32,366 nt of DNA, taken from the sequence record PV340563. One strand, given 5' to 3'. Within the stretch, counting starts at the first letter, position 1; each line of letters starts with the position of its first letter. The DNA is from Escherichia phage PhiR44_1. Positions 3,375 to 3,646 of the stretch are shown here, in pieces. Under the pieces are notes generated by a model. It had not been told where the DNA came from. It saw only the letters and a program-made list of their open reading frames with translations, and ran no database searches. Position numbers and translations under genes: made by a program.

Positions 3375-3646
3375 GTATTCGTATTGAAATTGGCGAACGT
3401 TATGTCGTTACCAGTGACAGCTTCCAGTTTATTCTCCACGAGAAAAAGAGAGCGGAAAGCGGTAAAAACGCCGGTCAGGAATGGCTGGCGGTGGTTGGTT
3501 ATTACCCGAAATTAAGCCAGCTCGTTTCCGGCCTGATGCATCACGATATTCTGACCGGAAGCGCAAAGTCTTTTGCTGATTTAAACGCGCAGGTTGAGCA
3601 ACTCAGCAGGCGTTGTTCAGAGGCTTTTGGCTCATATGGCCGTTAA
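3371..3646 (+). CDS. Hypothetical early protein (P2 orf83-like)
   Basis: 91-aa ORF overlapping the start of gene A. Confidence 0.6.
   Translation: MSIRIEIGERYVVTSDSFQFILHEKKRAESGKNAGQEWLAVVGYYPKLSQLVSGLMHHDILTGSAKSFADLNAQVEQLSRRCSEAFGSYGR

Follow-up and report, generated by a model that had tools for sequence, protein, structure and literature searches.

The replication gene A of a P2-type (Peduovirus) prophage of E. coli very probably starts at ATG 3636, inside the end of the upstream orf83 homologue, and carries the replication origin within its own coding sequence at 5476-5510. The window, i.e., the whole stretch of DNA that was analyzed, comprises 32,366 nucleotides (Escherichia phage PhiR44_1, sequence record PV340563), and the feature under study is the orf83/A junction in its early operon (Table 1). 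All three elements, i.e., A start, orf83 overlap and A-internal origin, are already annotated for P2 and 186; added here are the correction of the upstream candidate start codon from ATG to TTG, comparative evidence that A needs no N-terminal extension, the placement of the origin, so that its nick position (5494) can be entered in the annotation of this prophage, and two structural hypotheses, on a coupling hairpin in the mRNA and on a covarying hairpin at the origin.

Table 1. Features of the window discussed in the text (positions are those of the whole window).
Feature	Position	Strand	Basis or remark
Integrase	122-1132	-	ORF list
Repressor C	1172-1465	-	ORF list
cox	1618-1890		ORF list
B	2060-2560		ORF list
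orf83 homologue (DUF5405), 91 aa	3371-3646	+	PF17399, E 6.7e-13; corresponds to P2 orf83 27769-28044; RefSeq WP_000027667.1
Open A-frame stretch of 14 codons before ATG 3636 (start of the longest ORF)	3594-3635	+	Non-coding in the A frame; ordinary orf83 coding sequence in the orf83 frame
GAGG, Shine-Dalgarno (SD)-like element	3620-3623	+	Anti-SD duplex -5.8 kcal/mol; the only one near the start
Predicted mRNA hairpin	3620-3652	+	dG -16.8 kcal/mol; proposed coupling gate
Replication gene A, 757 aa	3636-5909	+	PF05840; stop TAA 5907-5909; start maps to P2 A 28034
Origin hairpin GCGGC-ATC-GCCGC, 5-bp stem	5476-5488	+	Precedes the nick core
Spacer GCCTC	5489-5493	+	Between origin hairpin and nick core
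Origin nick core GGAGTCCTGTCAATAAC	5494-5510	+	Coordinate mapping to the AF063097 rep_origin
C5 cytosine methyltransferase	5919-7070	+	PF00145; PADLOC MTase_II/DrmMII; RefSeq start TTG 6021
"BbrUII/HgiDII family restriction enzyme", 652 aa	7111-9069	-	N-terminal GHKL ATPase domain; convergent to the methyltransferase

The left end of the prophage lies at the beginning of the window, with integrase and repressor C before cox, and the gene order (cox, orf78, B, orf80-83, A) is that of P2 (AF063097/NC_001895). In the ORF list, B is followed by four small ORFs and then by a 2.3-kb gene, and the ORF preceding the orf83 homologue showed a DksA/TraR zinc finger in the domain search. The 2.3-kb gene had been named P2 replication gene A in the initial annotation, and this was borne out: its product matched the full profile (1-321) of Phage_GPA (PF05840) with 413.4 bits (cut-off 31.4, E 7.2e-124) and was 96.8% identical to P2 gpA over 757 aa (733/757), the 24 differences including R8C in the window. 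A weak match to PF23343 (REP_ORF2-G2P) was also found. By megablast, 74 phage records including P2 matched 3300-6000 with a coverage of at least 80% and an identity of 95-99%. Codon 8 of A (3657) reads TGT (Cys) in the window and CGT (Arg) in P2 and nearly all of 80 close relatives from IMG/VR, the T at 3657 being shared by only two of them (L010 and L011).

The A protein contains both an HUH metal-binding motif (HWH, residues 399-401, nt 4830-4838) and a Y-x-x-x-Y tyrosine pair (YIAKY, residues 450-454, nt 4983-4997; residues numbered from Met 3636), which by sequence place it among the HUH rolling-circle initiators. The same two motifs are found in the two-tyrosine initiators phiX174 gpA and the TrwC/TraI relaxases, compared with which the A protein of the window is much larger and has its origin inside the initiator's own gene, in a 33-kb dsDNA phage. 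Liu and Haggard-Ljungquist are said to have found in 1994 that P2 A nicks site-specifically, becomes covalently attached to the 5' end and acts preferentially in cis. [quoted passage not shown]

The start codon of gene A

The A frame is closed on its 5' side by TAA 3582-3584, as read from the sequence, and then offers three in-frame candidate starts, TTG 3594, TTG 3627 and ATG 3636, the last of which gives a product beginning MAVKASGCF. The longest ORF does open at 3594, as initially annotated (3594-5909, 771 aa); its first codon, however, is TTG and not the ATG that had been supposed upstream, both upstream candidates being TTG and the A frame containing no ATG before 3636. Seventeen open codons precede ATG 3636, and since 17 random codons are free of stops with a probability of about 0.44 (i.e., ~44%), the extra length of the longest ORF does not have to be explained.

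The start that the initial annotation had favored on homology, at 3636 with MAVKASG, is also that of P2 and of RefSeq. Alignment with P2 A and its ori region, proposed there as a check, brought the P2 start onto 3636 and the P2 nick onto 5494. P2 orf83 (27769-28044) and A (28034-30319 in AF063097) have a junction geometry identical to that of the window, and 3610-3656 is identical in P2, including SD, ATG and stop. For L212, an E. coli chromosome in which the same prophage resides, RefSeq gives a DUF5405 gene at 372-647 and a replication endonuclease at 637-2910, which correspond to 3371-3646 and 3636-5909 of the window. The A start codon is followed 8 nt further on by the stop codon of orf83 (TAA, 3644-3646), and the 11-nt overlap of the two genes (3636-3646), noted before, was read in the sequence and is identical in P2 and in the RefSeq annotation. 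The exact 757-aa product of ATG 3636 is public (7 contigs, "replication endonuclease [Escherichia coli]"), and its protein cluster has 21,920 members, of which all five that were fetched begin with MAVK; these five, all of the same 90% cluster, range from 754 to 770 aa and differ in length at the C-terminus only.

Natural variants with another upstream gene provide, on comparison of their sequences, the strongest argument for ATG 3636. A PAPS-reductase-like gene sits between orf83 and A in the P2 variants NC_070906 and Yersinia phage P37, in which an ATGA overlap forms the A start, an in-frame TGA lies directly upstream, and the first 11 residues of A are MSHSFQEQYTC vs MAVKASGCF in the window, followed in both by the common VPPSAFAAG. 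The A frame of 186 and vB_YenM_56.17 is likewise closed by a stop immediately before the A start, and the junction ...ccggtgtWtgtgaRTGa is common to 186, vB_YenM_56.17 and the PAPS variants. Because of the in-frame stop, an N-terminal extension is impossible in these four phages and hence dispensable. The variants amount to a built-in experiment, in which the N-terminus of A is exchanged and the extension not needed; its first 9-11 residues are replaceable. For distant A proteins, the alignment with the ATG product begins only near residue 29, their N-termini being shorter, not longer. In 186 (U32222), the N-terminus of A is some 19 residues shorter than in the window and the N-terminal region ~27% identical; as in the window, the gene overlaps the upstream stop, but by a 4-nt ATGA and with orf84 (PAPS-reductase-like) as the upstream gene.

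The PAPS-reductase-like gene of NC_070906 and P37 encodes 335 aa (locus positions 164-1171) in phages that are otherwise P2-identical; 186 orf84 and a remnant in vB_YenM_56.17 have the same 3' end and ATGA junction. The gene has apparently been lost from P2 proper, and from these comparisons the P2-type orf83/A junction looks derived. We also considered whether a deletion could have turned the 5' end of the PAPS-reductase-like gene into the N-terminus MAVKASG of P2 A; this was rejected, as that gene starts with MIVDTRC and the junctions are unrelated.

Translation of A, wholly or partly, from TTG 3594, which would add the 14 N-terminal residues MSNSAGVVQRLLAH, is highly improbable. It would use the longest ORF, and neither its codon nor its open frame varies among the 80 close relatives; this conservation, however, is explained by the coding of orf83, inside which TTG 3594 lies and where elongating ribosomes read another frame. 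The 80 relatives comprise 35 haplotypes; TTG 3594 and ATG 3636 are invariant in 80/80, no A-frame stop occurs within 3594-3635, and of the nine variable sites in this stretch three are synonymous in orf83 and two in the A frame. Since 3594-3635 is also constrained by orf83 coding and varies at too few sites to discriminate, its conservation speaks neither for nor against an extension. Against the TTG stand its weakness as a start codon, the lack of an SD (anti-SD dG -2.0 kcal/mol, spacing 0), the relatives with another upstream gene (a stop before A and 11 different N-terminal residues), and the absence of the exact 771-aa product from a public collection of ~15 billion proteins that contains the ATG product. 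We conclude that from TTG 3594 to the ATG the A frame simply continues open within orf83, these 14 codons not being translated as A.

An initiation at TTG 3627, three codons upstream of the ATG (M-A-H-M-A-V-K...), is in our estimate just as improbable. This codon is in frame and has GAGG 3620-3623 just upstream, but the spacing of 3 nt is too short for efficient initiation; furthermore, TTG is replaced by TTA in one natural relative (L050) with nothing else changed, and all public calls take ATG 3636. The same GAGG precedes ATG 3636 by 12 nt, a spacing that exceeds the optimum.

The start at ATG 3636 rests on annotation and comparative evidence, because a full-text literature search found no experimental N-terminus of P2 A, only secondary mentions. 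Odegrip and Haggard-Ljungquist in 2001 reportedly numbered the active-site residues of P2 A as Tyr450 and Tyr454; counting from Met 3636 places the two tyrosines at 450 and 454, and this agreement with the reported numbering supports ATG 3636. The ambiguity of the start that had been noted is nominal: two TTGs do lie in frame upstream, but TTG 3594 is without a ribosome-binding site. Automatic calls of the longest ORF would give a well-studied initiator 14 spurious residues.

Longest-ORF starts at TTG upstream of the annotated starts occur elsewhere in the window, at 2591, 2845 and 5919. TTG 2845 opens the longest ORF of orf81 (annotated ATG 2848) and TTG 5919 that of the methyltransferase gene, in which the RefSeq start TTG 6021 has a GGAGG SD. 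With such starts in other genes of the window, the ambiguity at A is an artefact of the kind that the mechanical listing of ORFs generally produces.

A predicted mRNA hairpin and probable translational coupling at the junction

Initiation of A at ATG 3636 is probably coupled to the translation of orf83, as suggested by the predicted folding of the junction and its comparison with related phages. In the predicted hairpin, the lower stem is formed by GAGGCUUU (3620-3627) and AAAGCCUC (3645-3652), with the SD buried in it, and the upper stem by UGGCU (3628-3632) and GGCCG (3638-3642). The A and U of AUG 3636 lie in a 5-nt loop; of the orf83 stop UAA, U 3644 is in a 2-nt bulge and the A's 3645-3646 are paired in the 3' arm. 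As a 37-nt window (3618-3654) the hairpin had a z-score of -4.1 and none of 200 shuffles folded as well, whereas in wider contexts of 56 and 101 nt it was marginal (z ~-1.9). Rfam at gathering thresholds and tRNA scans returned no matches in the whole window.

According to the proposed mechanism, the SD (GAGG) would be locked by pairing in the hairpin until orf83 is translated; a ribosome completing orf83 would melt the hairpin and terminate 8 nt past AUG 3636, and the terminating ribosome, or a new 30S subunit, would then start A. An orf83 ribosome that opens the hairpin and terminates just past the AUG corresponds to the classical arrangement of translational coupling, and ATG 3636 and the upstream stop TAA 3644-3646 lie within the proximity expected of coupled pairs. 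If this is true, the hairpin restricts the synthesis of a cis-acting initiator to ribosomes fresh from orf83.

The start at ATG 3636 might instead be independent of orf83, with the hairpin as a by-product of the overlapping frames and the 11-nt overlap as a deletion scar, which we regard as unlikely, though less so than either TTG start. The marginal folding in the wider contexts would agree with it, as would the derived appearance of the P2-type junction (186, vB_YenM_56.17 and the PAPS variants have the ATGA type). The natural variation of the stem can be read in both directions: in this dual-coding region, four variant stem positions keep pairing by wobble and three break an upper-stem pair, but the SD-pairing lower stem varies only once among the 80 relatives (C to U, with a G-U pair kept), and the hairpin is retained in all ten haplotypes found at -10.8 to -17.7 kcal/mol (energies of the reference structure). 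Two comparisons argue against independence. Coupling is indicated for the homologous junction of 186 by an annotation note in its record (U32222), according to which [quoted passage not shown]. Moreover, of the eight loci with which the window was compared, six (P2, both PAPS variants, vB_YenM_56.17, 186 and ENT90) show stop/start overlaps of 1-11 nt at A, the overlap being kept despite at least three different upstream genes; in PSP3 and a Klebsiella phage, A is annotated with a gap to the upstream gene instead. A literature search for an experiment on the dependence of P2 A synthesis on translation of the upstream ORF found none. Coupling to orf83 remains the reading that we prefer.

The replication origin inside gene A

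The initial annotation had stated that the origin lies inside gene A without placing it; it is located at 5476-5510. The annotated P2 "nick site at ori" (29892) falls on G at 5494, and the record of 186 marks the next base. In the A frame the core reads (R)SPVNN (codons 619-625). The sequence GCGCCTCGGAGTCCTGTCAATAAC at 5487-5510 is present once in the window, and the nick core has no second copy there on either strand when up to five mismatches are allowed; the 24-nt ori core with its flanks is identical in P2. The core GGAGTYCTGTCAATAAC is kept in 186 (rep_origin 28576), ENT90 and vB_YenM_56.17, the A proteins of which are only ~25-46% identical in their N-terminal part; in 186 the origin likewise lies within A, the core CGGAGTTCTGTCAATAAC following a hairpin. 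The ori of Vibrio phage PV94 is nearly identical (PMC3986222).

A hairpin before the nick core recurs in the wider family. Scanning IMG/VR with the ori core yielded at least 120 loci, of which 72 distinct sequences were analyzed. A perfect stem of 5-7 bp that closes a loop of 3-5 nt and whose 3' end lies 3-5 nt ahead of GGAGT was present in 60 of the 72 (83%), compared to 2.3% of shuffled upstream sequences, and the arms showed 17 different sequences. As a single ungapped alignment of the ori mixes the registers of 3-nt and 4-nt loops, pairs were counted on the 3-nt-loop subset; there, compensatory changes were found in six of seven pairs, and the covariation score of the register-selected rows was 0.377 vs 0.088 in shuffles (0/500 as high). 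Because these rows were pre-selected for register, the percentage paired is biased upward, and the unbiased comparison is that of 83% vs 2.3%. Compensatory change thus maintains an inverted repeat at a constant spacing to the nick core; across Peduoviridae, the hairpin 5 nt upstream of the core is conserved in structure, not in sequence.

The origin hairpin is a putative recognition element for A, which would nick its own gene at an origin composed of the hairpin (5476-5488), the 5-nt spacer and the core GGAGTCCTGTCAATAAC. In relaxase nic sites, an inverted repeat precedes the nick position by a few nucleotides. In layout the P2-family ori, with its hairpin 5' of the nick, resembles these sites; if the assignment is true, the P2 origin would be relaxase-like, not phiX174-like, and the covarying hairpin beside the nick core offers a testable model for site recognition by A. 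Only tentatively, and with somewhat less than even confidence, do we propose that the mRNA hairpin at 3620-3652 and the covarying origin hairpin are both functional elements, so far undescribed in P2; either may already be contained in the primary literature on the P2 ori.

The 3' end of A and neighboring elements

Within A, a terminator-like element at 3867-3894 (AATAAAAGCCCG-GTGCA-CGGGTTTTATT; A-tract, GC-stem, T-tract) is identical in P2. As an intragenic terminator resembling tM1, which is annotated inside the 5' end of A in 186, it was rejected (z -1.2 vs shuffles, missed by the consensus scan), and the position of 186 tM1 near the A start is not equivalent to 3867-3894.

Homology to P2 breaks in the last ~16 codons of A (~5860-5909), where the window ends in ...YDGKTFSYPISDGWAGFETN and P2 in ...YDGKKFTYPVADEWPGFSTVMEWT; with this diverged tail the A proteins have 757 aa in the window and 761 aa in P2. 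The break within the tail places the left recombination boundary of the hotspot inside the replication gene. Beyond it, P2 orf91/tin/old are replaced at 5910-9277 by a type II restriction-modification pair. This cargo had no match among 50,697 phage records; the same arrangement was found in 30 of 5,426 complete E. coli genomes. Directly 3' of the A stop (5918-5950), a TTGACA box is followed by a 9-bp inverted repeat (GCTTGATTT-N8-AAATCAAGC), which, lying upstream of the methyltransferase gene, may together form the promoter/operator of the restriction-modification unit.
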